A stretch of 62,435 bases of DNA, the filler included, from Hausera hauseri (Eukaryota), in the NCBI GenBank assembly GCA_046269625.1. It is 11 parts of 11 records of this genome, joined end to end, with 100 filler letters (N's around TTAATTAATTAA, not from the genome) between each part and the next. Parts side by side here need not be neighbours in the genome. Positions count along the whole stretch, not along the records: positions 24,059 to 30,675 come from JBJURY010081325.1; 10 more parts are not named here. One strand, written 5' to 3'. Below the pieces are notes generated by a model, which was not told where the DNA came from, ran no database searches, and was given only the letters and a program-made list of their open reading frames with translations. Position 1 is the stretch's first letter, and every line of letters starts with the position of its first letter. Of this stretch, positions 24,059-53,963 are shown one piece after another. A program made the translations under genes and the position numbers.

Positions 24059-27000
24059 AGCGCATTGACGGCCATATTACTTGTCGATGAAGTAGGCAAA
24101 ATGCGGCTTTAGTACCAGGATGGTGTAGTAAATGCACATGGTGAAATGCTTGTCTTTGCAATGATGGTGCTAAGATTATTAAGGAATGACCTGATTTGAA
24201 AGTGTCTAAAGCCACGCCGTCAACGATTGTGCAAGATTTAAAAGACTTAAGCATGTCTGGAGGTAGCTGGTTCTGTTGAAGTTGTTTTTGCGTAAAAATC
24301 GGAGAAAAACTAATCAACCTAACCGACCTAGATAAAAAATCAGCAACTAAATTGTTAACGCCGTTAATGTTTAATATCGAAGCTAAATGTCGATAAGTAT
24401 GATATTTGTCATTCTTAGTGTGTGGAAGGGTGTTTCATGGCCATTATGTTAAGTAAGGGTTTGTGATCAGTTTGCAGAGTGAAACGACGAGCGACAAGTA
24501 GATGTGAGAAATGCTTTAAAGCGAGAACAATTGCTAATAGTTCTGGATCAAACGTGGAATATCGAGTTTCAGGTGCTGTTAGCTTGCGGAAGAAAAATTC
24601 TAATGGTTGGTTTTCTCCCTTGTAGATCTGATGAAGTACAGCGCCTACAGCAGTGGTTAACGCACCTGTGGTGAGGATGAGCTCTGCATCAGGCTTGGGA
24701 AAGGCAAGAATATCAACGGTTTTGATGCATTCGAGTAGCTTGTCAAATTTGTCAACCAATTCAGGTGTTTACTGGATTGGTTGATGTTATTGCCGCCACT
24801 TAGGTGTGTGAATGGTGCCGCCAATTCTGAGCATTATGGGACGTATTTATGTACGAAGTGTAGTGTGCCAAGGAAGCTACGCATTTCGGTGGTCGTATGT
24901 GGCAATTGGATGTTTTTAAGAGCTTTGACTCGGTCTGATTGGGGAGAATGGCCGTCTGGGGTAATAAAGTTACCTAAAAAGTTAATGCGCTTTTTGAAAA
25001 AGTGGCATTTGTCGAAATTGATTTGGAGGTTGTGGTGGTTGAGACGTTGGAATATTGCACGAAGATATTGCTCATGTTGTTTGTCCGAAGATAAAACGAC
25101 TAGAATATTGTCGATATAAGGGTGTGCAAACGGGAAATCTGCAAGAATTGAATCGATTTGGCACTGAAAAGTTTGTTCGGCATTCCGCAAACCGAATGGC
25201 ATGAATAGATATTCATAAAGGCTAAAAGGAGTAGTTACTGCGGTTTTTTCTGTCTTCAGGTGCTACCGGTATTTGATGGTAGGCTTTAACTAAATCAATG
25301 GTCGAATAGATGGTGGTTGAATTAAGGCGATGCAAGATATCCTTGATTAGTGGTAAAGGGTATGCTTCCATGATAGTCAAGTTGTTAAGCTGTCGGTAGT
25401 CACCGTATGGTCTGAAAGTACCATCCTTTTTTGTACAACGTGTAACGGTAACGACCAAGGAGATTTGGAACAGTGTACTATTCCGGAATGTTCTAGCTCG
25501 AGAAATTCGGTTTTTACGGCCTGTCTACGGCGAGGTGACAGAGGCCGTACCTTTTGGCGTATTTGACGTTGATGCTGTGTGACTATGTGGTGTAAAGTGC
25601 TGTTGGCGGGAGTAAAAGTACGATTTTTTTTAAGTACGCGTGGACTTGATTTGTTGATGAATTGCTGTAACGTTGTAGGTAGCTGTGAGAGATTTGGTAA
25701 AAGTGGTGGAACGGTTTGAGTGGTAGCGGATGCGATGTGAGTTTTTAGGTGATGTGCAGTCAAGTGGTATTTGGTGTAAGATGGTTGAATTGAAGATGGT
25801 ATTGGCTGAGGTATTTTCGTCGAATGAGTTAGCGTTGGTGGAAGTACCGCAATTATCGACATTGAACTTTGATCGAATGTCAGTATTATTATTTCAAAAT
25901 TTACGAAAAGAATTATTATGAAAATTCGAATTATTGTTATAACAAATCGAATTATTCGCAGACTTTTTTAAGATTGGCTTCCGCACTCCGGTCGACTGCG
26001 CGTTAGTCGAAATGCTATTTACATGTCCAGAAATGTCGCCAGTGGTGCCGTTCCTCAAATATCGCTGGCTGCAGTCAACCAGTAGGTTATAGTGTGAGAG
26101 AAAGTCAGATCCAAGGATTGCCGACTGGACTTTAGCGACTGTGAACGTCCAGCGGAAAGGCGCAGAGAAACCAGGCAAAGTGAAAGATAATGTAGTTTTG
26201 CCCGAGATGCGCAGCGGTTGGCCTGAAGCAGTGTATAAGGGCTTAAGTTTGAATGGAGAGTTTTGAACTGGAAATGTTTGCGGTAGTAAAGAAATCGCTG
26301 CACCTGTATCGATGAGAAAGTCAACAGATTGAGTTGTAGAAGCAGTGATTGCGGCCTTTAAGGTGAAAATGGAGAAAGAGACATGTCGGCGTTCAGAATA
26401 TAAAGTAGTGCCGTTGCCAGAGTTTGCCGTGACTTCTGGCGGCGAACTTAGTTTTTTTTGAAAAGGTGAATTAGGATGACTATTAGAAGGAAAGGAAGTA
26501 CGTCCGTCATTCGTATGGGATTTGGAAGTGCAGCCTGGAATACATCTACGAGCTTGATTTTTGAAGCTTGAGTGGTAGATGCAGACAACGGTGTCCGAGG
26601 AAAATTTCTGGTTATAAAACTTGCATCCTAGGCAGCACTTCTGGGCATTGGTGTTAAATCTGCTGTGGTAATAGCAGATCGACTCACGCGCAGGCGATGG
26701 TGAGCGGTTTCTTGACGTGGAAAGGGAGCGGTCGGCGGCAAAACCCCTTCGTCGGGAGAGACAATTCGTTCAGTTTGTTATTGATGTTATTGATTGTTGC
26801 ATACAGTGCAATGTTTTCAGCACGTAGCTGACTAAGTTGTTGTTCTATAGATGTGTTATCATTTGTGGTAACTGCTGCTGAAACTACTGGTGGAGAATTC
26901 ATGTGTAGGACATCATATGTCCTATCGGCTAATTCGGCCAATTTTTCAAGCGGCGTGGAGACTCCCACCACAACAGTTGGGGGCGAATTCATGCCACCAC

Positions 27001-27330
27001 GAATGCGGAGATGTGTGTTGAAGCAAGCGTAATTTGAAAAAGGTAAAGTTTCGTTGAGATGTATAATAGTGCCGTGATGACTGAGGTAAAAGTCAGAAGA
27101 ACCAAGTAAGGAAGAAATGCAAGTCTGAAGGGTGGGAATGTGTGGATGTGTTGTGTGGGGGTATAAATGTTTATTGTTAAAAAAGAAAAAAATGGAAGTG
27201 GGAGCAGTTGTGCGCCTGGGGGCATGATGTGGGGCCAGCGCCGAAGGTGCCGTCCGATCGACCGGCGTAGGGTTGGCGGTCGGACCCTCCGCCTCGGCGG
27301 GGCGGGCAGCAAAATGCGGCTTGCCCCCAT
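24059..27330 (-). mobile_element. Decayed Ty3/Gypsy element, CsRn1/Kabuki-type; internal gag deletion; extends to the start of integrase
   Basis: Two CHCC fingers (CYYHSRFNTNAQKCCLGC, CIYHSSFKNQARRCIPGC), PR FLIDTGAAIS, RT, RNase H (LQTDHKPL), IN start HHPGTKA..WPSMR. Confidence 0.93.
26993..27228 (-). pseudogene. Ubiquitin-like N-terminal domain of Gag
   Basis: IPTLQTCISSLLGSSDFYLSHHGTIIHLNETLPFSNYACFNTHLRIRGG|MNSPP; LRIRGG at 27010-26993. Confidence 0.75.
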
Positions 27331-27504
27331 TCCCCCTCAAACCGCGCAATATCTGAGTGTCGTCATCGTTATTGAAACGGGCATCTTTTGCCGAACGTTT
27401 CAAAGCACATTTCACCGATCTGAATTGAGCTGCTAACATATTAGCGCCGTTTTTGTTCGTGCAAAATCCAGTGTTTCACAATTGCTGAATTTATCGTTAA
27501 AATG

Positions 27505-28112
27505 TTCGGCGCACAGGTAGACAGCACAGAAAAATAGTCGTTTCGGAACAGGTAATCACAAGAATAATGAGAACCAGAAACAAGAGGCCAAACATATAAT
27601 ACATGTATGTCGACCATATGTTGAGAATGTAAAATAACTGAATATACAACCAAATGATAAAACTCCTACCATAAGAATCCTGGGAACAGCACGCGTGTAA
27701 AGCGACTGGTATGGCATTTGTCGTGGAATCTGATTAGTTTTTACTGGTTGAGAAATTGGCGCCTTTTTGAATCCGATATATGCGCCGACAATGCACAATG
27801 GAAAGCTAATCAAAAAACAGCTAATAGACCAACAATTGCACCAAATTGTACTGCAGCTGAACTTTTACTGACCCATAAAACAATGTTCAGAATGAAAAAT
27901 ACGCCAAATACAGATTCGGTGCAAAGAAACGCAGTCAATATTACATTACTTTTCCACTTTTCACCGTTCATCATTTTACAAAGTCGCGATGACCAATAAC
28001 GGGCTGGTGCTTCAAATAAAACGTAGAAAACGATTCCACAAGTGGCAAACGCTCCTCGGTTTGCAGGGCTAAGGAATCTGAAACAACACACGAAATATGT
28101 CACTACTGTCAT
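27505..28112 (-). pseudogene. TM9SF2: Transmembrane 9 superfamily (TM9SF2/EMP70-like) internal fragment, fused in frame to PRMT3
   Basis: FLSPANRGA, GEKWKSNVILTAFLC, SSAAVQFG, PVKTNQIPRQMP, FGCIF, ITCSETTI; frameshifts; no introns. Confidence 0.88.
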
Positions 28113-29570
28113 GAGAGTCAACTGAAGTCCACGATTTTCTCTCATGTGCCGTTTAACCGAAATAGTCCCCGACAATGTCTCTCCCTCGGTCAATGGTATT
28201 TCTTCGGCAAGCAACAAAATCGTTTGCTGCCAATGAGTTGGCGTAGCTTGCGGACTTGTGGAGAACATTACTTGTTTCTCCGTTACCGTGTTAGGCGCGA
28301 AGAAAAACGTATCGAAATAAGCGACAATTGCGCCAACTTTGCCCGATCGCATATCAATCAATGTGAAATGTTCATTTATAGTTTGAGTACAGACGTTGTC
28401 ATTGGCAAAGGCCAAGTCCTGGACATCGTAATTACGTATACAAACTGTGTTTGTCATTATATCATTTAAGGGAACTATATCAACGATGACTTCTTTCGAT
28501 ATGTGACTTTTCATATTTTCCATATTGATTCCGTAAACATCATCCCAACAATCGATATTGTTTTGACGATATGTTGCCAAATTAGCACCGACAATGTTGA
28601 GTGTAAAATGGCGAGGAAAAACCAACCCACTAACAGGTCTTAGGTACCGTTTGCAAACATACAAAACTGATTCCAACATGGATTCATATATCAAAAAATA
28701 ACCCATCCATTCGGAAATTATAACGTAAACCTTTTCGCAATGAATCTGGATATCTTCAAGTCGTCCGTGTATCAATTTTACTTTATCACTGAAACCATTC
28801 TTTTCAACAATAGCCTTTGCATGGTAGATAATATCAGCACAATCCACACCATAATCGTGTTTCGCACCAGCCCTAGCAGCAAACATACTGAGAATACCGG
28901 TACCACAGCCGATATCAAGAATAACTTTACCATTGAAGTGCTCACAGCAGATTTCTTCATTGAATCGTCTGTATGATTCAGTTCTAACTTTATCCTTAAT
29001 AATAATATCGTGAATTGAATAATGAGAATATCCGCTAAAATAAGCAATATCCTCGTCACCCAACTTCTTAATTATTGAAATATCACAGAAAACATGTGAA
29101 TTCTCCACTAAACTGTCTTTATCCATTAATTCCATCAATTTCTCTTGTAGATTTGATATCGTCTGCTCATACAATTTTATTTGGGACTGCAATTCACTGA
29201 TATTCTCAGAAGTTTCTTGAAATAATGCCTTACCATAAATTGCACTAAAGTCACAGAATAATAAGCTATCGTTAGCTAAGTAAGGTTTTAGATATTCCTC
29301 ATCTTTCCAATGCCCAGACTGGATTTCGTCAACAGTTATTGAAAATATTTTTTTTCTTAAATAGTTTACAAATTTTATCCAGTCATATTCATCTTTAATA
29401 TTTGCAACGTCTAGTATATGCTTGATATTTGTGTTGTGGTCTCTAAATACATGATCAAGCATATTCATAGCATTGTTAAATTGCTGATCATAACATAAGC
29501 ATAAGTATGAATTATCAACGAAATCGTCATCGCAAATACTACCTTCGCTAGATAAATCGCAATCGGACAT
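28113..29570 (-). pseudogene. PRMT3: Protein arginine methyltransferase 3-like, near full length, intronless; natural stop replaced by the TM9SF2 fusion
   Basis: N-terminal zinc-finger-like region and YDWIKFVNYLRK, YLKP..ND.LL, YFSGYSHYSIH..KDKVRTESY, VILDIGCGTGILSMFAARAGA, IISEWMGYFLIYESML, STSPQATPTHWQQT; several conserved positions substituted (HDIIIKD, KVYVII). Confidence 0.9.
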
Positions 29571-29646
29571 CTGATGTATTTGATTCAAATTTGGATTTCT
29601 AGACTGGAGTTTGAAAATTCAACGTTGACCAAAGTTTAGAGGTAAA

Positions 29647-29670
29647 CAGCTCTGACACCAATTGTAGTAT
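29647..29670 (-). promoter_or_regulatory. LTR 3' terminus (...ACTACA) plus primer-binding-site-like TGGTGTCAGA
   Basis: Minus strand reads ATACTACA AT TGGTGTCAGAGCTG; AATAAA ~130 nt upstream; same junction as at 50965-50989. Confidence 0.65.
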
Positions 29671-30781
29671 GTAACTGTCGACAAATATGTTGAGATTGAA
29701 TATAATAAAAATTCCAAACGGTTATAGAAAAGAAAATCTGACTCCAATGGTAAAATGCACAGATTACTAGCAAAAATCAAAATGGACAATAATCGATTTT
29801 ATTTGACTTCAATTTACAAATTGTAATTATAAATAATAAATTAAAACAAAATTCCAACACTTGACAAAATAAAACCAGAATCATCTGCCGACATTTTGAA
29901 AAAGTAAAGTCCACTCAAATCGATATCAGATGGCTGAGACGTATCCAAACACAAATGAAAGGCGTTCGGTTTTGGTAAGACGTATGAAATAATTTTCATA
30001 TTGAGCGAGTTGGTACCATTCTATGATAAAGAAAGCTGAACACATTTTGGATCACTATCTGACGAGATCTGATGACATAAAATGTTTTAATCCTTTGACG
30101 TTTGGAGGTACAGTAAAACTGAAGAAAATATGTATTTTCACACTTTGGTGGCCTAAAAATAATCAGGGTTGTGCATTTTTGGAGTTGTTTACTTGGTATT
30201 TTCACAGATGTTTTTTTCACTCTTACATGTGTTTTTTCTGCTCTTTTTCTGCCCACTATCTCTTGCGTCACTCGGAGCTTATAACTTCCTCAGCATACGT
30301 GAATGCGTTCGCATTCCTCCATCGGAAACTTTACAGCAAGGGTGAATGCGTTTCTTGCTCTGACTGTGTCATGAGATGACGGTATTCTGTCAGATGAGAA
30401 GTCGTGAACAATCTTGTTTAAAATCTTGTTGTGTGTGTATTTTCTTCTTACAATGGCTTCACATACAGTGTTTCAGTTCTATATTTTAAAACTTTTTTAT
30501 CTCCATTTGGAGTCTTATTTATTGCATGTTTTTTTAAAGTCCAGTAATAATTCAGTCTGGGTCTTTTTAAGATGGCAGAAGAGGACTTGGTGAGTGAGTG
30601 AATGAGTGGGTGGTACATAAGGTTCAGCGAACGAATAGTAAGGAATGAAGGATAAGGTAGATCTACTAGCAATCANNNNNNNNNNNNNNNNNNNNNNNNN
30701 NNNNNNNNNNNNNNNNNNNTTAATTAATTAANNNNNNNNNNNNNNNNNNNNNNNNNNNNNNNNNNNNNNNNNNNNTTTAAA

Positions 30782-31480
30782 GATATTGCTTTTGAAATAA
30801 TTTACCCAAAAGGATGCAAAGAATAGTCATAAGGATTAAAAGAAGAAGAATTGAAAAGAAGACTCAATGATTTAATTTGAACATTAGATGTTCTTAGTAA
30901 CGAAAATCCATAGAACCAGGATTCTTTGCTGTATGGTGGTAGAATTAATAGTGAAGACAATCTGCTAATGTCATGAAGCAGTAAAGAAAGTGTTAAACAA
31001 TACAAAGGACTCCTCTATCATTTATATAGTGAACAGTTTCTGGGTCACCGCGACTCTGAAGTTCAACTTCGAGTAGGTAATTGTATTTGGTTGCTATCTA
31101 AAATATGTACTGCTGAGAAACTATTTAATTTATTTACTGAACCCTCAGGTTTGATTAAGACAGTTTTAGATTTCTTGTTGAAATGCCTAAATCATTTGGC
31201 CTCAATAAAGTCTGTTCATGATAAACATTACATCAATTGCCATAAGATTTTTTTGATTTGTCGTGAAACGGACATATTTACCCTACATGTAAATCTTGAT
31301 TCATCCAACGGTGTTTTAGCCGACGTTGTTTGTTTTTTACAATATCATTAGAAAATTTTCCGAATGGGGTATTGATAAATCATCAAACGATATAGGGCAT
31401 GACTTTATTATCCATCTATTTGATAAGAGTTGTTATTATACACGTGAAATTGCTACCGTTTATACTTAATTTTCTTGCTG
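30782..31480 (+). pseudogene. PDS5: PDS5 (cohesin regulator) N-terminal fragment
   Basis: IIYPKGCKE*S*GLKEEELKRRL and YKGLLYHLYSEQFLGHRDSEVQLRVGNCI parallel PDS5 ITYPPGVKEISDKISKEEMVRRL and [26 protein letters not shown]; in-frame stops; no introns. Confidence 0.7.
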
Positions 31481-31489
31481 AGTGAAGTG

Positions 31490-33523
31490 CATTTTTATCA
31501 TCCTCATCGACGACGACAATTCTGAATAATATTACATCCACTGAGTCCTTAAACAAAACTCTTCCCAGCGGTTCGTCAAAATCAGTAATAGTAGTCTTCG
31601 GACTTTAACCCATACGGCATATGTTACGACGGAATCTTCATCAAAAGAGACTGCATGGACTAGGTTGGCTAATTTTACATCTGTTTACCCTTTAAATACA
31701 ACTACTTTTATAGAAACGTCTAAATTGATTAATTATAGTAGATCTACACCGTCCATTATGGGGAATAGTTCTTTAAGTACCTCTGAATCGTACTTTCCAA
31801 CGTCTATTGTTCGGAGTGGTATTAAGTCAAGTTTCACTTCAAAAACGTCTCTATCCACTGGATTGCCAAAATCAACTAACCATAATATTCCTATTTCAAC
31901 GCATAAAGATTATTTTACTACTCCATTTTCATCAAGCCATAAGAACATGACTATTCCTAATAACATTACATCATTCTCTTCTTCAAAGACCAGTGCTCAA
32001 ATAGAGCCATCGAAACCAGTTACTGGAAGTTTTGTAACACCTTCAATTATGAACAATGATCTTTCGATTGTTTTTTCGTCATAGTTCTCAACTTCGAACA
32101 TTTTGAGAAACATTTCAACGATTCATTCTTCGCAAACAACACGTCTAACTGGATCGTCAAACCCCGTTAGACACACTACTTTAACATCAACTCATGTGGG
32201 TCATGGTTATAGAACATCATCTGTTTCAAATAAAACAAAATGGACTATTTTGAATAACTTTACGTCAGGTCATTCCGTTAACACTGCGTTTGTAACTCAG
32301 TCACCGGAATCGACTACCGGTAGTGTATATACATCTTTTATTGCAGATGGTGCTTCTTTAGGTACATCTGAATCAAATTTACCCAAATCGACTCACTTGA
32401 GTACAGTTGCATACACTGAGCCGTCAAACATGACACTTCTAATGAGCTTCCTGACTTCAGCAAGTAGGTTATTTTCTACGCCGAAATCTTCATCAAGACA
32501 AACAAAATGGACAATTCCGATTAACGTAACATGCGTCCATCACTCCAACACGGCGTATATATCAAAGTCGTCGAAAGTGACACGTGGTACTACCCCTACA
32601 CTTTCGTATGTTAGTAATGATATATCTAGTACACCTGAATTCAACTTTTCTAAATCGACTCTCTAATACCGTTTCATCCGCTACTCCATCGAGAATGACA
32701 CTTACTGATAGATCTTCAAAATCCCCTGGCTTTAGTACTCTAACGTCACATAGTAGATATGAGTCTACAACAGAAGCTCAATCAAACCACACAAAATGGA
32801 CAATTATTAATAACTTTACATCCTTTCATACTTCACACTCGTCGAAAGCGACTAGCGGTAGTACTCCTACATAATCTTATGTGGGTAATGGTTCTTTAAC
32901 TACGTCTTTATCGCATGTTTCGACACCGTCAAGTCTGGATAACTTTACCTCAATTCAGCCTTCTACAATGTCACTTCAAACGAGATCGTTAATATCAACT
33001 AATAGGAGTTCTCTAATGTCATCACATGAAGGTTATAACTTTACGGCATCATCTAAACTAAACCAAACAGCATGGAATATACTAAGTATGTGTACACCAG
33101 TTCAGTCTTCCAAGACGGCTGTTGTGACTGAATTATCGGAGATGTTTAACAGTAGTGCTCTCACAAATATACATATTAATAATGGTTCAGCAAGAACTTC
33201 TATATCGACCTTGTCAAAATCGACTATTCAATAATATTACATCAACCCACCCATCAAAAACCACTCTTTCAACTGGACAGTCAAAATCGACCGATCGAAC
33301 AAATATTACAACAACATATGAGGAATATGGATCTCTGACTACATCTATTATGAGCGGCGTTACATCAGTACATCCGTCAGTAACGACCCCTCTTACAGAA
33401 TCGTCAAAATCTGTTTACGACAGTACATATATAGGTATTGGTTCTACGGGTACATCTGCATTGAATTTCTTTTTATTTATCAAGTCTTCAGATATAATGC
33501 TTTCAACCGAAGCTTCAAAATAG
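31490..33523 (+). pseudogene. Mucin-like Ser/Thr-rich protein fragment with ~6 degenerate ~95-aa repeats
   Basis: Successive S/T-rich frames; repeat core (N)xTKWTIxNNFTS at ~31651, 31941, 32235, 32502, 32791, 33067; many N-x-S/T sequons. Confidence 0.75.
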
Positions 33524-33524
33524 G

Positions 33525-36500
33525 CCACCCCGCATTTTGCTGCCTGTCCCGCCTGGGCAAAAATCCCGACCGCCAACCCTGCGCTGGTCGGTTGGATGGC
33601 GCCTTCGACATCGGCCCCTCGTTATGCCCCCAGGCGCACCACTGCTCCCACTTCCATTTTTTTCTTTCCTAACACTATACATTTATACCCTAAACACAAC
33701 ACATCCACACATTCCCACCCTTCAGACCCGCATTTCTTTTCCCCTGGGTTCTTCTGACTTTTACCTCACCCATCACGGTACTATCATACATCCCAACGAA
33801 ACTTTACCTTCCTTTTCAAATCATGCTTGCTTCAACATACATTTCCGTATCCGTGGTGGAATGAACACTTCCCCAACCATTGACACTACGGATACAACCA
33901 CCACAAAAAAGCCAATACCCATTCTCTAATACTCCAAACCAAACCCTCCACCTACTTCAATTGATGAAAATCCTCACAAAAATCCTACCAATACTTCATG
34001 CTGCACTGAATACTTCATAGATAATGAAAAATCCAGTAAAACGTGGCTTCACTTCCATCAACTTTGGTTACAGTCCAACGGTATCACAGACTCCTTATCC
34101 AAAGCCCATAGCCTACCCTATCTTCTCCCAAACTCGATAAAAGCCTCAATCCATAACTTACTAGACATCTTTTAACACCCTGACCCTTATACCAAATTAT
34201 TCGACGCTGTATTAAAACAGATAGAACCATCAATCGACGTTTCTTTAATGAAAATTCACTGGGGACACAAAAACCCAGTGACTTCCTACGCACCTCGTTA
34301 GCACACTTGCGTACATTTGGCGTCACTAAGGAGCACAACCCAGATCTTCTACACCAATATTTTCTTAATGCGCTACCTATCCAAATCCGGACCCTCCTTA
34401 CCGTGGTGGAAGACTCCACGCCGCTTAAAAATTGGCCGAATTGGCCGATAGGACACACGATGTCCTACACGCAAATTCTCAACCAGTAGTTTCAGCAGCA
34501 GTTACCGCAAATGATAACACATCTATAAAACAACAACTTAGTCAGCTACGTGCTGAAAACATTGCACTGCATGCAACAATCAATAATATCAATAATAAAT
34601 TAAACAAATTGTCTCCGTCTCGACGGGGAGAGGGGTTTGCCTCTGATCATATTCGTTCTGCGTCACGAAATCGTTCACCATCGCAGGCGCGTTTGTCGAT
34701 CTGCTATTACCACAGCATATTTAACACTAATGCACAGAAATACTGCCTGGGTTGCCCATTTTATAGCAAGAATCTTTCCTCGGACACCGTTGTTTGCATT
34801 TACCGTGCAAGATTTAAAAATCAAGCACGTAAATGTATCTCCGGCTGCACCTTCAAATCCAGTACGAACGACGGACTTACTGCCTTCACTTCTCACAGTC
34901 GTCCCAGTTCATCTTTTCAAAAGAAACTAAGTTCGCCGCCAGCGGTCACGGCAAACTCTGGCAAAGGCTCTGCTTCACATTCTGTACACCGACACGTCTC
35001 TTTTGCAGTCTTTACTCTAAAGGCTGCAATTCCTGCCCCTTCAACACAATCTACTGACTTTCTCATCGATATAGGTGCAGCAATTTCCTTCCTACCATAA
35101 ACTTTTCCCGTACAAAATTCTCCATTCAAGATCAAACACTTATACACTGCTTCAGGCCAACCGGTACACATTTCTGGCGCGACTAAACTATTTTTCACTC
35201 TGCCGAATTTTCTTTCACCCTTCCACTAGACGTTTACAGTAGCTAACGTCCGAGTCGGAAATTCTAGGATTTGATTTTCTCTCACACTACAACTTACTGG
35301 TTGACTGCAGCCAAGGATATCTCAGGAGAGGCACCGTTGGAGACATTTCTGGACATGTAAATAGCATTTCGACTACCGCTCAGTCGACAGGAATGCGGAA
35401 GCCTATCTTAAAAAAATCAATGAATAATTCAATTTTTTATAACAATAATTCTATTCGTAAATTTTTAAACAACAATATGGATATACGATCGAGATTTGAT
35501 GTCGATAGGTGTGATACTGCTACCAACGTTCACTCATTCGACGACAATACCTTAGCCAACACCATTTTTTACTCAACCATCTTGCTCCATATACCACTTG
35601 ACTACACATCACCTAACAACTCACAAATTGCATCTGCTACTACTCAAGCAGTTGCACCACTTTCACCGAATCTCTCACAGCTACCTACAACTTTACAACA
35701 GTTCGTCAACACATCTTGCTCACGCGTACTTAAAGAAGACCATACTTTTACGCCCGCAAACAACACTTTACACCACATAGTCACACAGCACCAACATCCA
35801 ATACGCCAAAAAATACGGCCTCTTTCACCTCGTCGTAGACAGGCCGTAGAAGACGAATTTCTTGAGCTAGAACGCTCCGGCATCGTACGCCGCTCCAAAT
35901 CTCCTTGGTCATCACCGTTACACATTGTACAAAAAAGGACGGTACCTTTAGACCATGCGGTGATTACCGACAGCTTAACAACTTGACTATCATGGATGCG
36001 TATCCTTTACCATTTATGAAGGATATCCTGCATCGTCTTAATTCAACCACCATCTTATAAACCATTGATTTAGCTAAAGCCTATCATCAAATAGCGGTGG
36101 CACCCAAAGACATAAAAAAACCGCAGTAACTACGCCTTTTGGCCTCTATGACTACCTATTCATGCCATTTGGTTTACGGACTGCCGCACAAACTTTTTAG
36201 CGGCACTTTGATTCAGTTCTTGCAGATTTTCCGTTTGCACACCCTTATATCAACGATATCCTAGTCGTTTCATCTTTGGCCAAACAACATGAAGAATACC
36301 TTCATGCAATATTTCAACGTCTCCATCACCATAATCTACAAAACAATTTTGACAAATGCCAATTTTTCAAAAAAAGCACATTAACTTTTTAGGCCACGTT
36401 ATTACACCAGACGGTCATTCTCCCCAATTAGACCGAGTCGATGCTCTTAAAAACATCCAATTGCCACGTACGACCACGGAAATGCGTAGCGTTCTTGGCA

Positions 36501-36912
36501 CACTCCACTTTGTACATAAATATGTGCCATATTGCTCGGAATTAACAGCTCCATTCGCATACCTAAGCGGCGGCAAAAAACATTAGCCAATCCAGTGGAC
36601 ACCTAAATTGATTGACAAATTCGACAAACTACGTGACGGAATCAAAACCGTCGACATTCTAGCTTTTCCCAAGCCTGAAGCAGAACTTATCCTCATCACA
36701 GACGCCTCAACCACCGCAGTAGGCGCTGTACTCCATCAGATCTACAAGGGAGAAAAGCAACCATTAGAATTTTTCTCTCGCAAACTAACAACACCTGAAA
36801 CCAGGTATTCCACATTAGATCGAGAACTATTGGCAATTGTTCTCGCCCTCAAACATTTCTCACACTTACTCGTCGATCGTCATTTCACTCTACAGACTGA
36901 CCACAAGCCTTT
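33525..36912 (+). mobile_element. Decayed Ty3/Gypsy element, CsRn1/Kabuki-type (same subfamily as 24059-27330)
   Basis: GC-rich leader, UBL-gag, two CHCC-type fingers, PR FLIDIGAAIS, RT, RH ITDAS..DRELLAIV..QTDHKP; nucleotide similarity to the 24059-27330 copy. Confidence 0.93.
33624..33860 (+). CDS. Ubiquitin-like domain (79 aa, open from ATG) at the Gag N-terminus
   Basis: MPPGAPLLPLPFFSFLTLYIYTLNTTHPHIPTLQTRISFPLGSSDFYLTHHGTIIHPNETLPSFSNHACFNIHFRIRGG|MNTS; GG at 33855-33860. Confidence 0.75.
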
Positions 36913-43766: not shown

Positions 43767-45839
43767 TTATATCTGTATTGTAGCTCGTACTTCTTTCTGC
43801 AGTTCCATTTCTGTTTCCTTGATTACCGGAATGTGATATAAATTTTCCAGGATGTATTTGTCTTTAGTGGCAAATAAGATCATCCGGAGTTTGTTTTTAT
43901 CCGTGTCTTTTAATACAAGTGGACGACCACCCCTTGGTTTAGGGAGAGGTACCACATCCAACTGGATTGGGATTGGTTGGAATGTGAGAATTGGTTTGTG
44001 ACTGAGTTGTTTTACTGTTTCCAGATTTCCTCCGATTAGTGCCAGGTGAAGAGTGTTGTATATCTTGTTTTTATACACGATGCCAATCGGGATACCAAAA
44101 TTTTTATTTGGAATCACTAGACGGTTATTTGTTATACTTGAGACGGATTGTGGTACATATTGAACGTTTATACATTGGCTAATTTGTCCATATAACAGCA
44201 TGGATAATTCTGTTTGTGGTTTCGGCTCAGTACTTGTTAGTATGTTATCTGTATTATTTTTCAATTGCTCTATTGGAGATGGTTTTTTATTCTGGATCCG
44301 TTCGTATTTATAATTTTCATGATACTTTGATGGAATTTTTGATAGACTGCCATAGTCAATTACATTATTAGCAGGCGGCTTCCAATCGTAGGTCCATTTC
44401 TCGTTTGAACAGGAGTTTTCTATTTTGTTATAGATTTGAATGATACTTTGAAGAATCAATTCTGCCGTTTTTGGAAAACTGTAGTCAAAGCCATATACTG
44501 TGGGCATCTGTGTTAAATTTGTTTTGAGCCCTTGTTCTTGAAACCTTTGCTTGGTATTTTTCGTTGCCAATAGATCCAATTCTCCAAATATGACTTCTTT
44601 TGGGATTCTGAGTGCTTTGAGGATGGCGCTGGTGTTGGCGCTAATAACAATGTATCCAAAGAGATATCGTATTATCTCCTTTCGAACTTCGTCTTCCTCT
44701 GGTGATTGTTGGATGATTTGCAATGACAACCCATGGATATGTTCGTTTGTATTTGAAATTTTTCTCCTGGGATTAATAAAAGACTGGTAGATAATTAATT
44801 GAGTTTCGTCAGCGATAATGATTTCTATAGGTAGAAGATCTCCATTGGAGGCGTAAGCTAATGACACTGCCAGAAATCGGTAATTATGGATTGTTGTTAG
44901 TCCATAATTATAGATATTTTTATCCGGTTGTTGGTAAAAAATAGGCATGTTAAACTCGGCTTTAATATCAGTTGTGAGACATGATTCTATGCCGATAATG
45001 ACTGGTGTTGCTAATATTCGGAAATATAGATTGGTTTTCAGGGCTATTGCCTTAATCTTTATGGTGTTCTTTGGTGTCATTATCGCAATTTTTTCAGGTA
45101 ATCCGTCATAGTTATCCGATTGGGCTCGCATCTGAATTTTTCCTTGACTTAAATGGACGAGGATTTTCTTTGTATTGTCCTCCATTTGTATTAGTCTAGT
45201 TAGATCCACATTGTATAGAGGATTTTCGTATTTCAGTAACCGGAATGAACGATCCGAAAGTGTGTTAGTTTTTAAAGTATTGTCCAAATATTTACATTCA
45301 GGGTAGAAAATGTCTGTGGACTCATCGGTTAGCTCTATTAATTTACTGTAAAACTTTGCAGAATAGAGATTTCTGTTGGTGTCGTATCTTTGGATAAGTT
45401 TTTTGTCATACAACTCGGTTAAAGATCTATTTTTGATCCTGCTTTTTTCGCTTTTCTGAAAGTTTTCTTGTACTGTACTTTGCAATCTTCTTTGTTTTTC
45501 GTCAGGTAAATCATTAAAGGTAAAACCTTTTCGTCTGACTTCCGTCATAGTGGTATACATCTTTGCGATTGGAGTTGAGATAGGTCGCGATAAAATTCCT
45601 CTGTTCATTGAATAACTCAGATTGGGAGTTTGGAAAGTAAATGAACAACTGGTAGTTGGATGTATCATTTGTTGTTGAGGTGGTATAACCCTTCGTTTAG
45701 GGTTAGGGACCACAGTTTCGTTTGAATCATCTGAACTGGCTTCGTCTTCGAACTTATCCAAATCTATGCTGATTTCTTCCGGATCATTATCCTTTTTTAC
45801 AGATTCTGGTTCATAGACTGGCGTGTTTAAGAAATCCAT
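43767..45839 (-). CDS. Intact 690-aa retroelement accessory ORF with an inactive DEDDh (REX4/ISG20-like) exonuclease domain
   Basis: Uninterrupted frame; polypyrimidine+CAG acceptor (45844) just before the ATG; FLAVSLAY..IIIADETQLIIYQSFINPRRKISNTNEHIHGLS..SPEEDEVRKEIIRYLFGYIVISAN..LKALRI matches the fold pattern without the catalytic acids; ends ~190 nt before the PPT. Confidence 0.75.
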   Translation of the reverse strand: MDFLNTPVYEPESVKKDNDPEEISIDLDKFEDEASSDDSNETVVPNPKRRVIPPQQQMIHPTTSCSFTFQTPNLSYSMNRGILSRPISTPIAKMYTTMTEVRRKGFTFNDLPDEKQRRLQSTVQENFQKSEKSRIKNRSLTELYDKKLIQRYDTNRNLYSAKFYSKLIELTDESTDIFYPECKYLDNTLKTNTLSDRSFRLLKYENPLYNVDLTRLIQMEDNTKKILVHLSQGKIQMRAQSDNYDGLPEKIAIMTPKNTIKIKAIALKTNLYFRILATPVIIGIESCLTTDIKAEFNMPIFYQQPDKNIYNYGLTTIHNYRFLAVSLAYASNGDLLPIEIIIADETQLIIYQSFINPRRKISNTNEHIHGLSLQIIQQSPEEDEVRKEIIRYLFGYIVISANTSAILKALRIPKEVIFGELDLLATKNTKQRFQEQGLKTNLTQMPTVYGFDYSFPKTAELILQSIIQIYNKIENSCSNEKWTYDWKPPANNVIDYGSLSKIPSKYHENYKYERIQNKKPSPIEQLKNNTDNILTSTEPKPQTELSMLLYGQISQCINVQYVPQSVSSITNNRLVIPNKNFGIPIGIVYKNKIYNTLHLALIGGNLETVKQLSHKPILTFQPIPIQLDVVPLPKPRGGRPLVLKDTDKNKLRMILFATKDKYILENLYHIPVIKETEMELQKEVRATIQI

Positions 45840-46241
45840 GTTGCTGAAAAAGAAGATAAAGGTATAGCAGGTCACATTTAATGGCTTGCTAGAAGGGTAG
45901 GTGGTTACCCTTCGATATTTTACTGGTCTGATATGTTGATGCAAATCTATTGGTTTAGATTTGCTGGTATGTAGTGTGTGCATTAATACTATTGTTTTAG
46001 TTGGTGTGTATGATTTGGTGTGTTTATTTTTGTTATTAAGTATTTTATCCCTTTCAACGTCGACTCTCCACTCCACACATGTTAGACATAATAGATGAGT
46101 TGACAATAACAAAGTTTNNNNNNNNNNNNNNNNNNNNNNNNNNNNNNNNNNNNNNNNNNNNTTAATTAATTAANNNNNNNNNNNNNNNNNNNNNNNNNNN
46201 NNNNNNNNNNNNNNNNNTTTTAGTTTAACATTTACTTTAAT

Positions 46242-46842
46242 TTGTTTTTCATTCAGAAATGTTTGCAATATCCCATGTATTGCATCCCTTGCATACATAA
46301 GGGTGGACAGTGCCACAAGGAAATGTTCAAATGTTATTCAGTGGCCAAGGACACGTACCTGTGTCCCGTGTGTTTTATTCAAAAGACGTGTCCGTACGCC
46401 GACTTTTATAAGATGCACAAGCATATTCTCAGTCCGTTCACGCGATCCAAGACTAATCACGTTCATTGCCCCACAGTTACGTTACTGTACTTTTAAGGTG
46501 CATGGCGTTGATGGTTACCCTAGTGCAATGGAGCAGTTCTATGGTACAACAACAACAACAACCACAACGGTGCACGGTAAACGGGCCTATGTAGGCCCCG
46601 GTTGTTCTATAGTTGAGACGCAAGTCAACTATGAACAATTCTACAACAACCACATGGACCACTTGAACCAGTTTCAGAAGTCCAAAAAAGAAATATTAAT
46701 GGACTTAGCAAAAGTAGCATCAGCAGCAGGAAACGTTAAGCATCAGCAAGCCTTGACGAATACTTTCAAAACAACGGAAGTCAGAAACAGCAGAAGCAGC
46801 AGCAGGAAAATGAACCGCCCATTACTGTCAAGTACGACCTGA
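46242..46842 (+). pseudogene. Cys/His-rich frames upstream of PolB, probably the frameshifted N-terminus of the same gene
   Basis: CIPC..CHKEMFKC..YLCPVC..MHKH; same codon style as the downstream polymerase. Confidence 0.4.
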
Positions 46843-46849
46843 ACAGATC

Positions 46850-49800
46850 GTACGTGGACATGAAGGTGGACATATCGGCGAAAACAGCAAAGCAGTTGAA
46901 GGATGTACCCGCTAATGTGCGTAACCGGTTGGAATCAGAGGTGGCCAATTTCCAACAACAACACTACAGCAAAGTGCAATATTATGCACTTGCAGAATTT
47001 GCAAATCTGCAGGGTGACAGGGAACAATGGTACCTTTCTCATCGAGCCGTACCATACTCTGAGGATTTTATTGCCGATTTAGGCGAAAAGCTTCACGAAA
47101 AAAATCGCCAGCTACACCGAAAAGGGAGGTGATGGCGAATTGTAAAGATTGTCACTCTCGACTTTATTCTGACCAAGACGAGTGACATGATTTACCTGTC
47201 CGGACGTTCATTCATACCAACACCTGCATCCTTGAAGCAGTCTCTGGCGGTAGTGAATGTACAAAATACTAACGACGAATAATGCTTTATTTACAGCATT
47301 CTGGCCATATTGAAATATGATCGTGTCCAGACATCATGCAAATTGTCCAAAGCAGTACAGTAAGTATTTCTCAGAATTGGACTACGACGAGTGTTGGATG
47401 CCGATGAAACACAAAACCATTCCGGCATTTGCACGACGTAATCAGACACTGGTAGTCAACGTGTTCCGGTTCAACACAATCGTAGAATCCTCACGTGGAC
47501 ATAATTTGCCGCAGTCGAAATCCTATTGGACGCCCAGTAAATTTGTTGCTGTTGGAGAATGGAGAAAAGTTTCATTACACGGCCGTGAACAATTTGGACA
47601 GATTGTTGAACATGGAGCATGACCAGTTCATCAAAAAGCGTATACGGCGCAAATGGTGTTCCGTGTGTCTGCATGGATTCCGATCAAATGAGATATGGGA
47701 AAAGCATGTGGCGCTGTGCAGACAAACTTCGTAAGGAACCACAATGTATGTTATGCCAGTCAAAAAGGAGTTGAGATTCAGTGACTGGTCAAAAACGGAC
47801 AGTCCGGCATATGCGGTGTATGCCGATATCGAAGCAATTCTACCACGGCTCAATGTATTCGATCAAAAGCACGTTCTAATTTCCGTTCATATGTTGCTAG
47901 TACCAATAAAGGCCTCCGGGCAACCGCGGTATTACGTTTTCCATGGTTGGAACTGTGTACGTGATTTCTTGCAGCAGGTGAAACCATAGTGGAAACGGAA
48001 ATCGCGCCGTGGTATCGCAACAATTGCAATAAGCCATTGGTTTCGGCAGACGAATATCAACCGCTGCTTTTCGCTGTCACTGATGAATGCTATCGTGCCA
48101 CAAAATAATACCGTTTGATGCACAGGAACGGCTCGTACTTGCGGTCGATACTTGCGAGCAGCATGCAATTCATGCAATTCAGCAAGGCGAGTGCGACCAT
48201 TCCTGCCGGTGATCTTTCATAATTTCCGAGGCTATGATTGTCACCATATTCTCAAATGGGACATTAACGGCTTTCCATACTGGGATCTATGCATAATCTC
48301 AACGACAATGGAGAAATACCTATCGCTGTCGGCATGAGTAAACCGATTTCAGGTACGCTTCCTTGATTCATTGCAATTTCTCAATGAATCATTGGCAAAG
48401 CTGGTAAATGCCTTATCAGAGGTGCCGATACCACCGACGCAGTTCCCTGCATATATTGCACGCAGCAAATGCATATTTCCATATGACCTTGAAACATCGT
48501 ATGAGCGACTCCGGACAGCAGAGGAATTACCGCCGTGATGGACAGGTATCGTAGAAGATGAATATCTGAGAGTACAAGAATCTTGGACAGAACTTGGCTG
48601 TAGAGACATGTTAAATTACATGTGCCAGTATCTTAAACTGGACGTGTACTTATTAGCCGACGTGTTCAAAGCATTTCGGACCAAAGCGCTGGCGGAAGAT
48701 AGGTTGGAGCCACTCAACTTTTATTCCATACCTGCATTGAGTTAGGCGTCAGCTCTAATGTCGCTGGATCGAGACATTGAGCTGCAGCAAGACCCGGAAA
48801 TGTACCAAATGTTTGATGTCAGTATTCTCGGCTACATGACATTTGTCAACAAGCATCAGGTCAATGCTACCGATATCACATCACTGCTGTATATTGATAT
48901 TAATAACCTGTACGGCTGGTCGCTTTCGCAACCCTTGTTGTACGGTTCATTTGAGTGGGTAGTCGACAGACAAGATCTGGACCACATAATTGTCAATCTA
49001 CCACGAGCAAACATAACAGGCTCAGTCGGATACCTGATGGAAGTCGATCTCGAGATACCGGATGAGCTGCATGACGATTTGGACGATTTACCGGTCGCAC
49101 CACTTAACCAATATCCGCCAGGCTCAAAAGTGAAGGAACTGCCCATGACTCACGAACCGAAGCAGAATTACGTGGTCCACTGGCGTTTGCTACAGTTCTA
49201 CATGCAACTCGGTGTACGCGTCACACAGCTGCATCGTGCAATCCGATTTTCTCAGGCTCACATATTCAAGGCGTACATAGATGGAAATTCGACGTAACAA
49301 GCCGCAGCTTGTACAAAGTTCGAAAATTACAACTACAAGCTGAAAAACAATTCCCTGTACGGAACAACAGTGGAGAATCTGAAAAAGCGGCTTAATGTAC
49401 GCCTATGCAATAGCGAAAAGCGGTTGGTCACGTACACAAGTAAGGCACAGTTACGGCTGACAATGCACATTGCCGACGGATTGGTTGCGGTGCTGCTAAA
49501 CATGGAAGAATTCGTTCTGGACCGGCCAAGTTACATCGGACAATTGGTATTGAACCTGAGCAAGTTGAGGATGTATGAGATGCAGTATCGCGACTTGGTA
49601 CGTTACCGGCAAATGTTTGACGGCTGCAATATTGATATAATTAACTGTGACACAGATAGTTTTTTCCTGCGGCTGAAAAACGTCAATCACGAACAAGTGC
49701 TGCAGCAAATGATGGCAGACGGATTACTGGATACGTCCAATTACCCACAGAATTATCCATTGTACAGCTACGCCATCACAAACAAAATCAGCTGCTTCGA

Positions 49801-50089
49801 GGATGAAAGTGAAGGTCGGGTTCAGTATCGGGAATGCATATTTTTACGGCCAAAATGTTATAGCCAAAGGAGTTCAGTTGACCCAGACGGAAATAAACCA
49901 TGGTAATTATCGCCGTGCCTATGAAGGAGGACAATCAAAACTGTTGTGTCTCAAACAATCATCCGATCAATTGATCTCCAGCTGTATACGGTGACCAATA
50001 CAAAAGTCGCTTTATCATGCAATAATGATAGTCGAAAATGGGTGGGGCGAAATAAGAGTTGGGTGTACGGATATTGGAGTTTGATATAA
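46850..50089 (+). pseudogene. Polinton/Maverick-adintovirus type protein-primed DNA polymerase B with an endonuclease VII-like insert
   Basis: CFIYSILA, CSVCLHGF, YADIEA, AACNSCN, FHNFRGYDCH, RFLDSLQFL, KCIFPYD, YLKLDVYLLADVF, YIDINNLYG, KLKNNSLYG, CDTDSF, LRPKCYS, AKGV; multiple stops and frameshifts. Confidence 0.9.
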
Positions 50090-50964: not shown

Positions 50965-50989
50965 TTCTACAATTGGTGTCAGAAGTGGA
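50965..50989 (+). promoter_or_regulatory. LTR 3' terminus (...TCTACA) plus tRNA-Leu-type primer binding site TGGTGTCAGAAGTGG
   Basis: TTCTACA AT TGGTGTCAGAAGTGGA; AATAAA ~85 nt upstream. Confidence 0.75.
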
Positions 50990-51099
50990 TTAAAAAAGCA
51001 AGAATTGAAATTTTATTCAGACTTCAAAATTAGCATTTTAACGGATGCTTTGAAGTTTTGTTATTTTTTCATGAGAAACTGCGCATTAGATTGAGAATA

Positions 51100-53240
51100 A
51101 ATGCCGCAAAATTACGATGGAACTAAAAAGCCGTCGAAATTATTTTGGATGTACATGGTCATTGTATTCGACAAATAGACCCGAAAGCTGGGCGTATTCT
51201 TTCGGTTTATTATTACAAAGATACTGAAATGATTTCCAAAGTGTCCGATGTCAGTTACGTGTTTATTATTCGGATGGATTTGGTCGATGCATATGTTCTC
51301 TGTCCAAAACCGAGATGAATTCTTTTGTGTAGCAGCCGAAAAAGCAATGAACAAAATCGGATGTACATTACACGAATTTAAGATCCATTGTCAAAGGATT
51401 ATTTTCTAGAATATTGGATGGGTAAATATAAACAAGATGAATACATCACTTCACATGCGGAATTGTACGTTCAAAAAGTGGTTCCTCACAAACATGGCTC
51501 AGACAATCCCATACAGAGGCTGCTGTGTTTGACAGAAACATGTCTTGTAGAATGAGATCCAGAAACTTATATCCTCGTTACTCTAAGACCGTTGTGCGAT
51601 ATATTTGCCTTAATTCCTAATCCAGAACAACCGCAAAAATTCATTATCGAATACGTTCAAGGAGTGGCTAGAACATACTTTTCTACAGATCGAGATTCAC
51701 GTTTATCATCTTTACCTGATGGTGCTCGTTCAAGCGGTAATCGCGATGAATGTGTTAAAATGAAACCCACCGAACGTTGGTATCGATTTGGTCCGTTTAT
51801 TGTGGCAGTTGAAGAAGAGGTTGAATCGCGGCATATGAAAATGATCCAACAAAAACCGGGGACCTTCTGCGTGTCAGACACGCTCCAAGAAACACCCGGT
51901 GGAATGAGCTTCAGTGAGGCGGTCAACAGATTCAATGCCAACATACCATACAGTGGACTATTGAATGTCGTTACACAAGAAGGTCTGTTTTCGAAAAATA
52001 AAGCAAGATTGATAAAAGGAGCTTTGGCATCACTTATTAATAGAGAATGCAATCAATCTGAGATTTCAGCACACGAATCAGAAGCGCAGTTTCATGCCGT
52101 AAGACGGTTGACAGCTTCGAAAGCTGATTTCCAAGCATTTACACAAATAAATAAAATGCGCGAAACTCTTGGCAAGAAAGTCTTTCTGGCACTTAGTAGA
52201 AACGATGAAGCCGTTGCTCACTTTGCCATTGATATAATCAATTCATTGATACAACCCATGCATGAAAACCATGATATACGACAGGAACAACTGAACAAGG
52301 ACAGTATTATGTCAAGCGATGAGTTTTTAGAAAGTCTCCCGGACATGTTTTCGCTTCATCTGCTACGTGAAACCGGTGCTTTGGTTATCAGTGCAACGCT
52401 GGACTTTTTGACATTCACAGTTTGCCCATCATACTGTGAAACGTCCAAAGGTGACAGCTTTGATACTTTGCTAAAATCCGAGTATGGCAACTGTGAAAGG
52501 TGTATGTCTGATCATCCAAGCTCTGATTGATGAAGCGGATTCGGAAGCTGGAGATTCATTGCAAAGACTTGCATTAGCAGAAGGCCTCTTACCGCAGCAT
52601 TTATTGAGTTCATAGTTTGCAAGAAACAATGATCATCGTAGTCTGGCATTTCGTCAACTCAATCTTCAGCTTCTTTCGTTGTGGCTTTCTGGAAATATCG
52701 AAGCCAAAGACTTTTTACGACGCGTTTTACCATTTGGTTTGACTTTGAACTTGGACAGTACCAATGAACCACCGGTGTCATCGATTGACTACTTGTTCGT
52801 TAGAGATGATCTGGAAACGGCACGGGTGCATTGTTTGGAAACCCAAAAGAAAAATGCCGAAGCACTAAGAGCATTAGAAAAGAAATCAGATAACCTTTTG
52901 ATGCACTGGCGAATAAAAAATTGTCTCAATATCAAACCGATTCGTGATAGAGATAAAAAACCAGTCTGTTTGAGGAAGCGACGAAAGCGCATAAAAGCGG
53001 TAGATAATTGGAAGCTGTTCTTTTATCGCTTCTGTCAAGATCATGCAAAACCCAATTTGATTTGGAATATCTAGACCAGAAAAGAATTTAGAGAAGCTCT
53101 GGAAAAAGAAATAACGGAATTTAAGCGCGAACGAAATTTCTGTACTCAATTAGAATCATCGGAAAAAACTGATGATCCAGACAATGTTGATGAAAGTTCA
53201 ACCGAAATGAACGAACAAACGAATACCAAACATAACAGAT
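51100..53240 (+). pseudogene. DNAJC13: RME-8/DNAJC13 N-terminal fragment, intronless
   Basis: RLLCLTETCLVE*DPETY..TLRPLCDIFAL, YFSTDRDS..DGARSSGNRDECVKM, FNANIPYSGL, QPMHENHDIRQEQLNK, LRKRRKRIK..NWKLF..DHAKPNLIWN; stops and frameshifts. Confidence 0.92.
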
Positions 53241-53963
53241 AGCAAGTGGTTCAATAACTATTGTCTGAAGCTGCTATTTTTGAAAATGTAAAGAAAATGA
53301 ATATGATAAAAGAATCGGTTATTATTGTTCGTAATTCAAGACGAAATAGTACAGATTTTATGTGTAAAAGACCTACTGCAGTTTTTGACGTTCAAACTGC
53401 ACAACCTTTTCTTTGCCATCGTGGATATCTATCAACTAATGCTTTTCTTTTTGATCGATCATCATTTGTTAAAAAATGAATGGCAAAAGTGATTATAGCG
53501 ACCTAAAAGATTTTCGAAATCAAGAAATGGCTCCTCAAATCGCAGATACTATTATACTGCCACCAAAAGGACAGATCAGGTCACACGGTACCAATTTCAA
53601 CTTAACAGTATTCTGTCCCGGTGAAAATTGCTCAGCGCAATCATTCTGTGTCAGAATCACATTGTCAATGCTCGGTCACAATGAAGATGCTGTCACTGCG
53701 TTCAGTAAAAGAACATTCAGACACAGGTGGGTGAGATTTTTTGCACTGATTTGCCCCCAGCAGTGCGACCATTTTTTGCTCATATGCAGACCCTTCCTGG
53801 TTCAAACTATTTTTCATTTTAAAGGGTTTCTAAGCTTAACATCTTTGAATATTCCTTTATCCCAATCATCATTTGTCACCGCTATCCCGGCTGTACGCTC
53901 GAACCGCTTCTTAACCCAAAAGGTAACTGCCCAAGCCCCCGTGCATTTCATCCTTCCCCTGGT

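Follow-up and report, generated by a model that had tools for sequence, protein, structure and literature searches.

Long terminal repeat (LTR) retrotransposons are already known to capture cellular mRNAs by template switching. In the LTR retrocopies described by Tan et al. (2016; PMC5131818), the reverse transcriptase (RT) repeatedly changes template, using short shared words, to mRNA packaged along with the element. The LTR elements contain partial mRNA copies from two to four parent genes and show secondary re-copying, and in one family the switch site is fixed. The maize LTR element Bs1 carries pieces of three host genes in one open reading frame (ORF) (PMC13317346, PMC5131818). Several of these traits recur at the locus described here, which lies in a 62,435-nucleotide (nt) stretch of Hausera hauseri DNA (GCA_046269625.1; hereafter, the window, at its full length) and makes up one entire contig (G000:C81325, JBJURY010081325.1; window positions 24059–30675), with all element parts on the minus strand. 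The locus is a broken Ty3/Gypsy copy that holds, between the primer binding site (PBS) and gag, intron-free segments derived from PRMT3, from TM9SF2, and from a RecQ helicase gene, probably gathered serially from host mRNAs by template switching. What it adds to the known process is that the cargo is often in frame with a predicted ubiquitin-like domain (UBL) joined to Gag. The PRMT3::TM9SF2 chimera itself is a by-product, of little weight alone, and the locus is a decayed copy from a family that is unusually prolific in capture.

Layout and decay of the PRMT3::TM9SF2 chimera

In terms of layout, the locus runs along the minus strand from an LTR end through the PBS, 80 nt, PRMT3, TM9SF2, the RecQ piece, and DDB1 and NAA15 remnants to a GC-rich leader, the UBL, and gag–pol (Table 1). 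An initial annotation of the window had placed an LTR end and a PBS upstream of PRMT3, and this layout holds and belongs with the element family: ACTACA-AT is followed by TGGTGTCAGA at 29660–29651. The 90 nt that it counted ahead of PRMT3 are likewise correct when measured from the PBS start to the first ATG at 29570 (80 nt from the PBS end), and the ATG-free spacer is likely the PRMT3 5′ untranslated region. Specifically, an alignment with 15 homologues covers the PRMT3 copy over its whole length, with no more than ~10 C-terminal residues missing. As annotated, the copy is near full-length and intronless; its best named full-length matches show 35–39% identity. The frame from 29618 to 27810 is open for 602 codons, 586 of them counted from the first ATG, in agreement with the ~590 codons first estimated for the fused ORF. 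Pfam matches along these 602 codons comprised an ANM3 zinc finger (76–112), a methyltransferase (233–328), PRMT_C (342–502), and EMP70 (497–602), and the TM9SF2 part was 60% identical to mollusc TM9SF2 (58% over residues 497–602 in the other comparison). The in-frame junction into the middle of TM9SF2, annotated at 28112, was recovered to within ~18 nt and cannot be placed more closely because the residues GLQLTL fit PRMT3 and TM9SF2 alike. The fused ORF stops at a frameshift at 27810, beyond which TM9SF2 continues in the two other frames to ~27511. An imperfect hairpin was also observed within the PRMT3 zinc-finger region (window 29407–29474), with weak Rfam miRNA matches below threshold.

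The initial annotation had let TM9SF2 run directly into the leader; the order of the two was right, whereas their adjacency was not, as a RecQ piece of ~145 nt (~27510–27365), which we take to be RecQ5, and the DDB1 and NAA15 remnants intervene. The serial capture that it proposed is supported, whereas its count of two mRNAs is not: at least three genes contributed, and the cassette is family-wide. The RecQ piece is joined to TM9SF2 via a 6-nt shared word with both native frames kept, and the same frame was scored as RecQ_Zn_bind in copy L005. A short shared word is also present at the RecQ/DDB1 joint, and the remnant DDB1 and NAA15 codons were identified through the longer cargo in relatives. 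Neither Pfam nor PDB gave a match for the 421-amino-acid (aa) ORF by which the final RecQ codons are assigned their frame, so that this frame rests on ORF length and contiguity. Of the proposed search for microhomology, the TM9SF2/RecQ joint (~27510) thus gave a positive answer. The RecQ piece is common to this copy and the three RecQ-carrying copies, and a 4-nt loss within it, shared by this copy, L102, and L074, is likely older than the TM9SF2 capture. The two other TM9SF2-bearing copies both have different upstream sequence, and that of L102 differs from this copy from 27974 upward.

The assembly is highly fragmented (909,086 contigs). Its host is an invertebrate with short introns, and CARM1 and TM9SF exons that we read as vertebrate-like, with long introns, were seen in L025, L026, L041, L223, and L227; judging from these exons, the assembly seems to mix two organisms. 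An assembly artefact in such a fragmented, mixed sample would fit the low depth, the single run, the PRMT3 joint seen in one copy, and the vertebrate-like exons in L025, L026, and L041, but is very unlikely given the state of the joints. A unitig of sequencing run X1 bridges the 28112 joint (27869–28239, 0 differences, depth ~10), and a second covers 27340–27644, including the joints from 27510 to 27340, without mismatches, although X1 may underlie the assembly and is hence not independent. The TM9SF2–RecQ–leader chain recurs in contig C866631 at ~88% identity, and the TM9SF2 part in a third contig; furthermore, the joints preserve native frames, and similar fusions occur in other public assemblies.

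The chimera is decayed. The PRMT3 copy has lost 15 of 96 invariant columns, zinc-finger Cys included, whereas the 15 homologues lose 0–6 each in a leave-one-out comparison; part of this loss may reflect lineage divergence. The ratio of nonsynonymous to synonymous differences per site (pN/pS) between the TM9SF2 part and copy L102 was 0.85 and 0.99, on only 16 and 22 differences, and a frameshift private to this copy truncates the TM9SF2 part. Judged from the sequence, the PRMT3::TM9SF2 protein is a relic under neutral decay, and no role is supported for the membrane-anchored methyltransferase that the initial annotation had envisaged from its transmembrane helices. These losses also bear on whether the locus is a working domesticated gene, either the only PRMT3 of the organism or a selected membrane-anchored chimera. 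The 586 codons open from the first ATG after the PBS agree with such a gene, and no other PRMT3 locus was present in G000, a circumstance that the initial annotation had named as speaking against capture. Formally this is the case, in an assembly as fragmented as this one; yet the copy is unlikely to be a working gene because conserved residues have been lost, and with near-neutral pN/pS and the private frameshift added, we consider domestication highly improbable.

The gag–pol region downstream of the leader is co-oriented, as annotated, and broken: it contains frameshifts, stops, and a ~540-nt gap in gag near 26971 relative to 3/3 siblings checked. The Ty3/Gypsy order of gag, protease, RT, RNase H, and integrase is present, with the PBS in this copy and the polypurine tract (PPT) and LTR head in siblings L075 and L096.

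Table 1. Features of the chimeric element copy, listed along the minus strand (window positions)
Feature	Position	Strand	Remark
3′ portion of 5′ LTR, AT-rich, end ...ACTACA	29663..30675	-	truncated by contig end
10-nt PBS fused straight to cargo	29651..29660	-	
80-nt spacer without ATG	29571..29650	-	
PRMT3 copy, intronless, near full-length, decayed	28113..29570	-	
TM9SF2 middle	27511..28112	-	in PRMT3 frame to 27810, frameshifted beyond
RecQ-helicase piece, from end of Zn-binding region onward	27365..27510	-	
Older-cargo remnants: a few DDB1 codons followed by a few from NAA15	27342..27367	-	
GC-rich leader (72%), sharing the frame of UBL-Gag	27228..27341	-	element-internal
Linker and predicted ubiquitin-like domain, end LRIRGG, then Gag Met	26993..27227	-	
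Gag CX2HX9CX3C (CHCC) motif	26623..26676	-	
Broken gag, protease, RT, RNase H, integrase start	24059..26992	-	several frames; truncated by contig end

A variable host-derived cassette across the family

The copy count recommended by the initial annotation revealed a large family, with 860 first-look leader candidates in G000, of which 40 were scored. Upstream of the leader, ORFs of at least 90 aa summed to 14,755 aa in sense and 2,707 aa in antisense (33 of 34 loci examined). Of 79 sense ORFs listed, 74 were scanned, and Pfam matches were obtained for 33 of these: 31 were to host domains from ~17 gene families, including CHD1, STT3, PAZ, Rb, tubulin, GCP, ITPR, INTS7, UFL1, and UCH, and two were to retroelement domains. 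The cargo is nested, in that the leader-proximal pieces are common to more copies and PRMT3 is private to this copy. Changing, co-oriented host pieces occupy both the PBS-to-gag interval and the LTR interior of the family, and the joints concentrate at the PBS and at two spots on the 5′ edge of the leader; cargo thus enters two sites, one within the LTR and one between the PBS and gag. Of seven LTR-side ORFs compared with Pfam, six had no match and one had a weak match below the cut-off.

Several related copies were observed alongside these. A second PBS–cargo–UBL element (window 50974–54984, plus strand) carries RME-8/DNAJC13 pieces (Pfam E 5e-112 and 3e-41), and its UBL ends in CLRGG then S, followed by a head-like segment. 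A sibling on contig C135206 (window 30776–36912, plus strand) has Ser/Thr-rich, mucin-like cargo upstream of the leader, which is also found in L077 and L045. In L090 (C3224, 3733–275, minus strand), a near full-length and apparently intronless TM9SF paralogue, presumably TM9SF4-like, lies upstream of UBL-gag in a related element. Pieces of other LTR elements were seen upstream of the leader beside host cargo in L086 (2922–3810, minus strand) and L076 (1–1469, plus strand); one is an integrase, and the RT among them is, we assume, BEL/Pao-like. In L075 (C479909, 1–1621, minus strand), an RNB-type exonuclease piece, DIS3L2-like by a motif that we take to be diagnostic, lies inside the 3′ LTR behind the head.

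The LTR end and PBS belong with this Gypsy family. The segment 30141–29659 has an 89% match in contig C149966, and over its final 150 nt it also matches other pre-PBS ends; the copies are diverse in their AT-rich LTR ends. In siblings, the integrase and purine tract are followed by a 110-nt GC-rich head starting TGTGG and then by variable sequence. By our reading, 9 of 30 head loci follow a purine tract and 21 follow unrelated flanks; no match to this head was found within C81325. A solo LTR of ~1.9 kb is present at locus L166; its 5-bp duplication is perfect, and its right end is 90% identical to the pre-PBS sequence of L080. L036 is a second, weaker case, with one mismatch in its 5-bp duplication. 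The order PPT tract, head, 4.2 kb, LTR end, PBS, 1.2 kb, leader was found in L094, and the PBS lies 64 nt ahead of the leader in L247. The exact PBS 10-mer occurred upstream of the leader in sense in 6 of 40 loci, compared with one in antisense, and the 18-nt form, presumably of the tRNA-Leu type, occurred 324 times in G000, compared with 0 for a reversed control. PBS copies fused to cargo are either cut at 10–13 nt or extended to ~45 nt of tRNA: in L068, L008, L243, L245, L247, and L248, the PBS continues past the usual 18 nt as a ~35–45-nt tRNA copy. ARAGORN found no tRNA gene at four PBS loci. An inverted PBS/tRNA copy also lies nearby in L248. We rejected the alternative that the CCCCACA of the leader is the true LTR end and the PBS is foreign, as 30/30 loci continue into the same downstream sequence; this alternative is also contradicted by the head loci, none of which had CACA with a matching duplication, and by the solo LTRs, which end in AT-rich pre-PBS sequence.

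The splicing state of the cargo could be assessed where candidate parental loci were present. The DDB1 locus L201 contains a 77-nt GT–AG intron that is absent from four of the five cargo loci queried, the fifth having no motif match. In L205, AG and GT flank the STT3 exon, the frame of which is intact, and the cargo continues into coding sequence on both sides, with a pN/pS of 0.39 between cargo and parent on 18 differences. Similarly, the DIS3 locus L271 has GT–AG introns that the public fusion protein P0201 spans at 78–96% identity. The comparison with parental loci suggested by the initial annotation therefore supported intron loss for the DDB1 and STT3 cargo of relatives, whereas the parents of PRMT3 and TM9SF2 were not found.

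If the cassette was built by serial capture, short words shared with co-packaged host mRNAs would let the RT switch onto these one after another. Late minus-strand synthesis would leave the element at the 5′ edge of the leader and continue along a host mRNA, in this case until close to the 5′ end of PRMT3, and plus-strand strong-stop DNA, consisting of the LTR and a tRNA copy of variable length, would join the end of the host cDNA; such joining would explain why cargo-fused PBS copies range from 10 to ~45 nt. The chimeric copies would then be re-copied and capture again.

A number of observations weigh against this account. No parent of this PRMT3 or TM9SF2 span was found in the assembly by DNA and protein searches: the PRMT3 search yielded only PRMT1, CARM1, and other paralogue pieces, and the TM9SF2 search yielded paralogues, vertebrate-like exons, and one decayed 5′ part (a CHD1 parent locus was also looked for and not found). 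Because these parents were not found, neither intron loss nor a shared word supports capture at the 28112 joint itself. The PRMT3 frame has no stop over 486 codons, which occurred in 5–15% of neutral simulations at 4–6.5% substitution; this chance is lowish yet acceptable, because a long frame was the reason for choosing the locus and PRMT3 was captured last. When one mismatch was allowed, the PBS 10-mer was found in only eight sense and four antisense cases; 5 of 17 head loci gave loose duplication matches, and the L036 duplication could thus be due to chance; and a whole element with both LTRs was found in no contig. Finally, some cargo seems to retain an intron (L206 and L084), and L020 (C18860; PRMT1) and L224 (C12579; TM9SF2 5′ part), with introns of ~36–50 nt and in-frame stops, are decayed intron-bearing copies, which suggests that DNA-level or pre-mRNA routes also operate.

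The last of these points, like the missing PRMT3 and TM9SF2 parents, would be expected if gene conversion or non-homologous repair had copied genomic pieces or old processed pseudogenes into resident elements. As the origin of this cassette, however, such DNA-level capture is improbable: it does not account for the exact intron loss in the DDB1 and STT3 cargo, the strong sense-strand bias of the cargo ORFs, the clustering of joints at the PBS and the two leader-edge places, or the PBS copies that extend into tRNA sequence past 18 nt. Template switching onto mRNAs thus remains the preferred reading.

The predicted ubiquitin-like domain, the reading frame, and the start of Gag

The segment between the leader and Gag is predicted, with low confidence, to be a beta-grasp ubiquitin-like domain. 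Its AlphaFold model had a predicted local distance difference test score of 60 (low confidence) and the order E-E-H-E-E-E. The best Foldseek hit (E 0.07) was not significant, in a list dominated by ISG15 and ubiquitin; VIA gave a best Z of 4.8, with a root-mean-square deviation of 3.2 over 65 aligned positions; and an atlas search with scores below 0.9 provided only a lead. Sequence searches with the UBL returned no Pfam or PDB match. RGG stands at the UBL end in 17 of 18 aligned rows, the remaining row ending short of the site, and the di-glycine is kept in subfamilies that are 33–44% identical. The shared alleles at the three codon positions numbered 26/23/43 in the UBL and 12/19/14 in the leader, gag rows having been excluded because the reference copy is frameshifted there. 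A known RNA or ribozyme in the leader was considered and rejected: Rfam gave three weak miRNA matches below the gathering score, none of them in the leader, for which the folding z was −0.20.

The cargo is often in frame with this UBL. When the frames upstream of the leader were compared, that of Gag stayed open the longest in 41 of 56 anchored copies, which share ancestry; raw open-frame lengths overstate the in-frame bias, since shared stops lie near the joint in the other two frames. Among the in-frame peptides, 9 of the 24 scanned (24 of 36 listed) had a Pfam match, namely ankyrin, DDB1, RB_B, DUF3452, tubulin (three copies), kinase, and RecQ plus TPR/NAA15, and none of the scanned ORFs of at least 95 aa was seen to place a host domain directly against the leader in a different frame. 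Shared words alone predict that 0.39–0.41 of joints are in frame, and under this null the chance of five independent in-frame classes is ~0.01. The present copy keeps the native frame at all five of its joints, with weaker evidence for one of them.

No conserved ATG was found in the leader or UBL, the commonest being present in 10 of 54 copies. In a second subfamily, S or K follows the GG in 7/7 loci detected among 11. In addition, public ORFs encoding DIS3::CNOT1::UBL-Gag (P0201 and P0203) and CARM1::UBL-Gag (P0204) combine Met-started host cargo with the UBL and a CHCC Gag and have no Met after GG; P0201/P0203 and P0204 are single predicted public sequences (ENA), possibly from the same species as this genome. 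Because the UBL lacks a conserved start, related subfamilies lack Met after GG, and these public fusion ORFs exist, the cargo may supply the start codon. The captured coding sequence would then give the start, translation would run in frame into the resident UBL, and host deubiquitinases would release Gag regardless of the cargo. By analogy with pestiviruses, it is conceivable, if doubtful, that Gag is supplied with a start codon by the cargo and freed by host deubiquitinases that cut the UBL. We also tentatively propose, with no greater assurance, that capture is tolerated or selected and that the element is a standing exon-shuffling machine with a replaceable 5′ host-mRNA cassette.

Other observations favour a simpler start of Gag or argue against a frame maintained through the cargo. 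Met follows GG in 37 of 45 UBL ends of this subfamily (all retrieved loci), so that Gag could start at this Met. Codon positions in the leader show no signal of protein-level constraint. Of nine PBS-bearing copies, all decayed, only this one has a long frame open from the first ATG that follows the PBS. One cargo class has an ambiguous native frame (L076 vs L086), and the shared RecQ frameshift would close the frame ahead of Gag, with an in-frame ATG following in this copy.

If the proposed start and cleavage of UBL-Gag hold, they would link mRNA capture by LTR elements to pestivirus ubiquitin-fusion processing, explain how gag–pol is retained while the 5′ end is rewritten repeatedly, and predict that a single animal genome holds many multi-gene chimeras joined in frame. 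Such cassettes are prone to mis-annotation as host genes or novel fusions.

Two further observations concern other parts of the window. A 782-codon open frame at 43767–46115 (minus strand) had no Pfam match, and ORFs at 46740–49906 (plus strand) resemble, by eye, the B-family polymerase of Polinton/adintovirus type, the two that were scanned having no Pfam match.

Comparison with known systems

Our literature search found no description of a UBL upstream of Gag or of a variable PBS-to-gag cassette; subscription journals were poorly covered, and novelty is not implied. Among described Gypsy elements, the CsRn1 clade (PwRn1, AgCR) shares the Gag CX2HX9CX3C motif and the order protease–RT–RNase H–integrase with the present family (PMC2582038). 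However, that clade has a tRNA-Trp PBS, TGGTGA(G/C)CCCG, and a 4-bp duplication (PMC2582038), whereas this copy and its relatives have TGGTGTCAGA, of Leu type, and a 5-bp duplication fits best, in two solo LTRs only. We do not file the element in the CsRn1 clade, because its PBS is not of the Trp type and its duplication does not look like 4 bp; the UBL ahead of Gag is a further difference from the clade (PMC2582038). The giant planarian Gypsy element Burro/GYPSM1 likewise contains host-type domains in its polyprotein, including a Ubi2/SUMO motif, but has a fixed ORF of 4,900–5,100 aa with an N-terminal Gag and CCHC knuckles, unlike the CHCC Gag, upstream UBL, and variable cargo seen here (PMC6431247).

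Cytopathic pestiviruses offer an analogy that extends only to how the system may work: captured cellular mRNA and a ubiquitin module lie upstream of a viral protein, and host hydrolases have been shown experimentally to cut the ubiquitin insertion, leaving an authentic N-terminus (PMC8310069). A pestivirus is an RNA virus with near-identical host ubiquitin (PMC8310069), whereas the UBL described here is divergent and resident in the element, and its cleavage is putative.

The closest likeness is to captured host sequence in other LTR elements. Bs1 is one fixed chimera with 1–5 copies and is reported to be expressed, whereas here the cargo varies and the copy is decayed (PMC13317346, PMC5131818). 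As in LTR retrocopies, the cargo of this locus is flanked by element parts on both sides, the LTR end and PBS on one and leader–gag–pol on the other, and the shared TM9SF2–RecQ–leader chain indicates secondary re-copying. In the retrocopies described by Tan et al. (2016; PMC5131818), the captured sequence takes the place of a portion of the internal ORFs, at tens of loci; in the present family, by contrast, gag–pol is retained downstream, cargo occupies the PBS-to-gag interval as well as the LTR interior, candidate copies number in the hundreds, and the cargo is often in frame with UBL-Gag.

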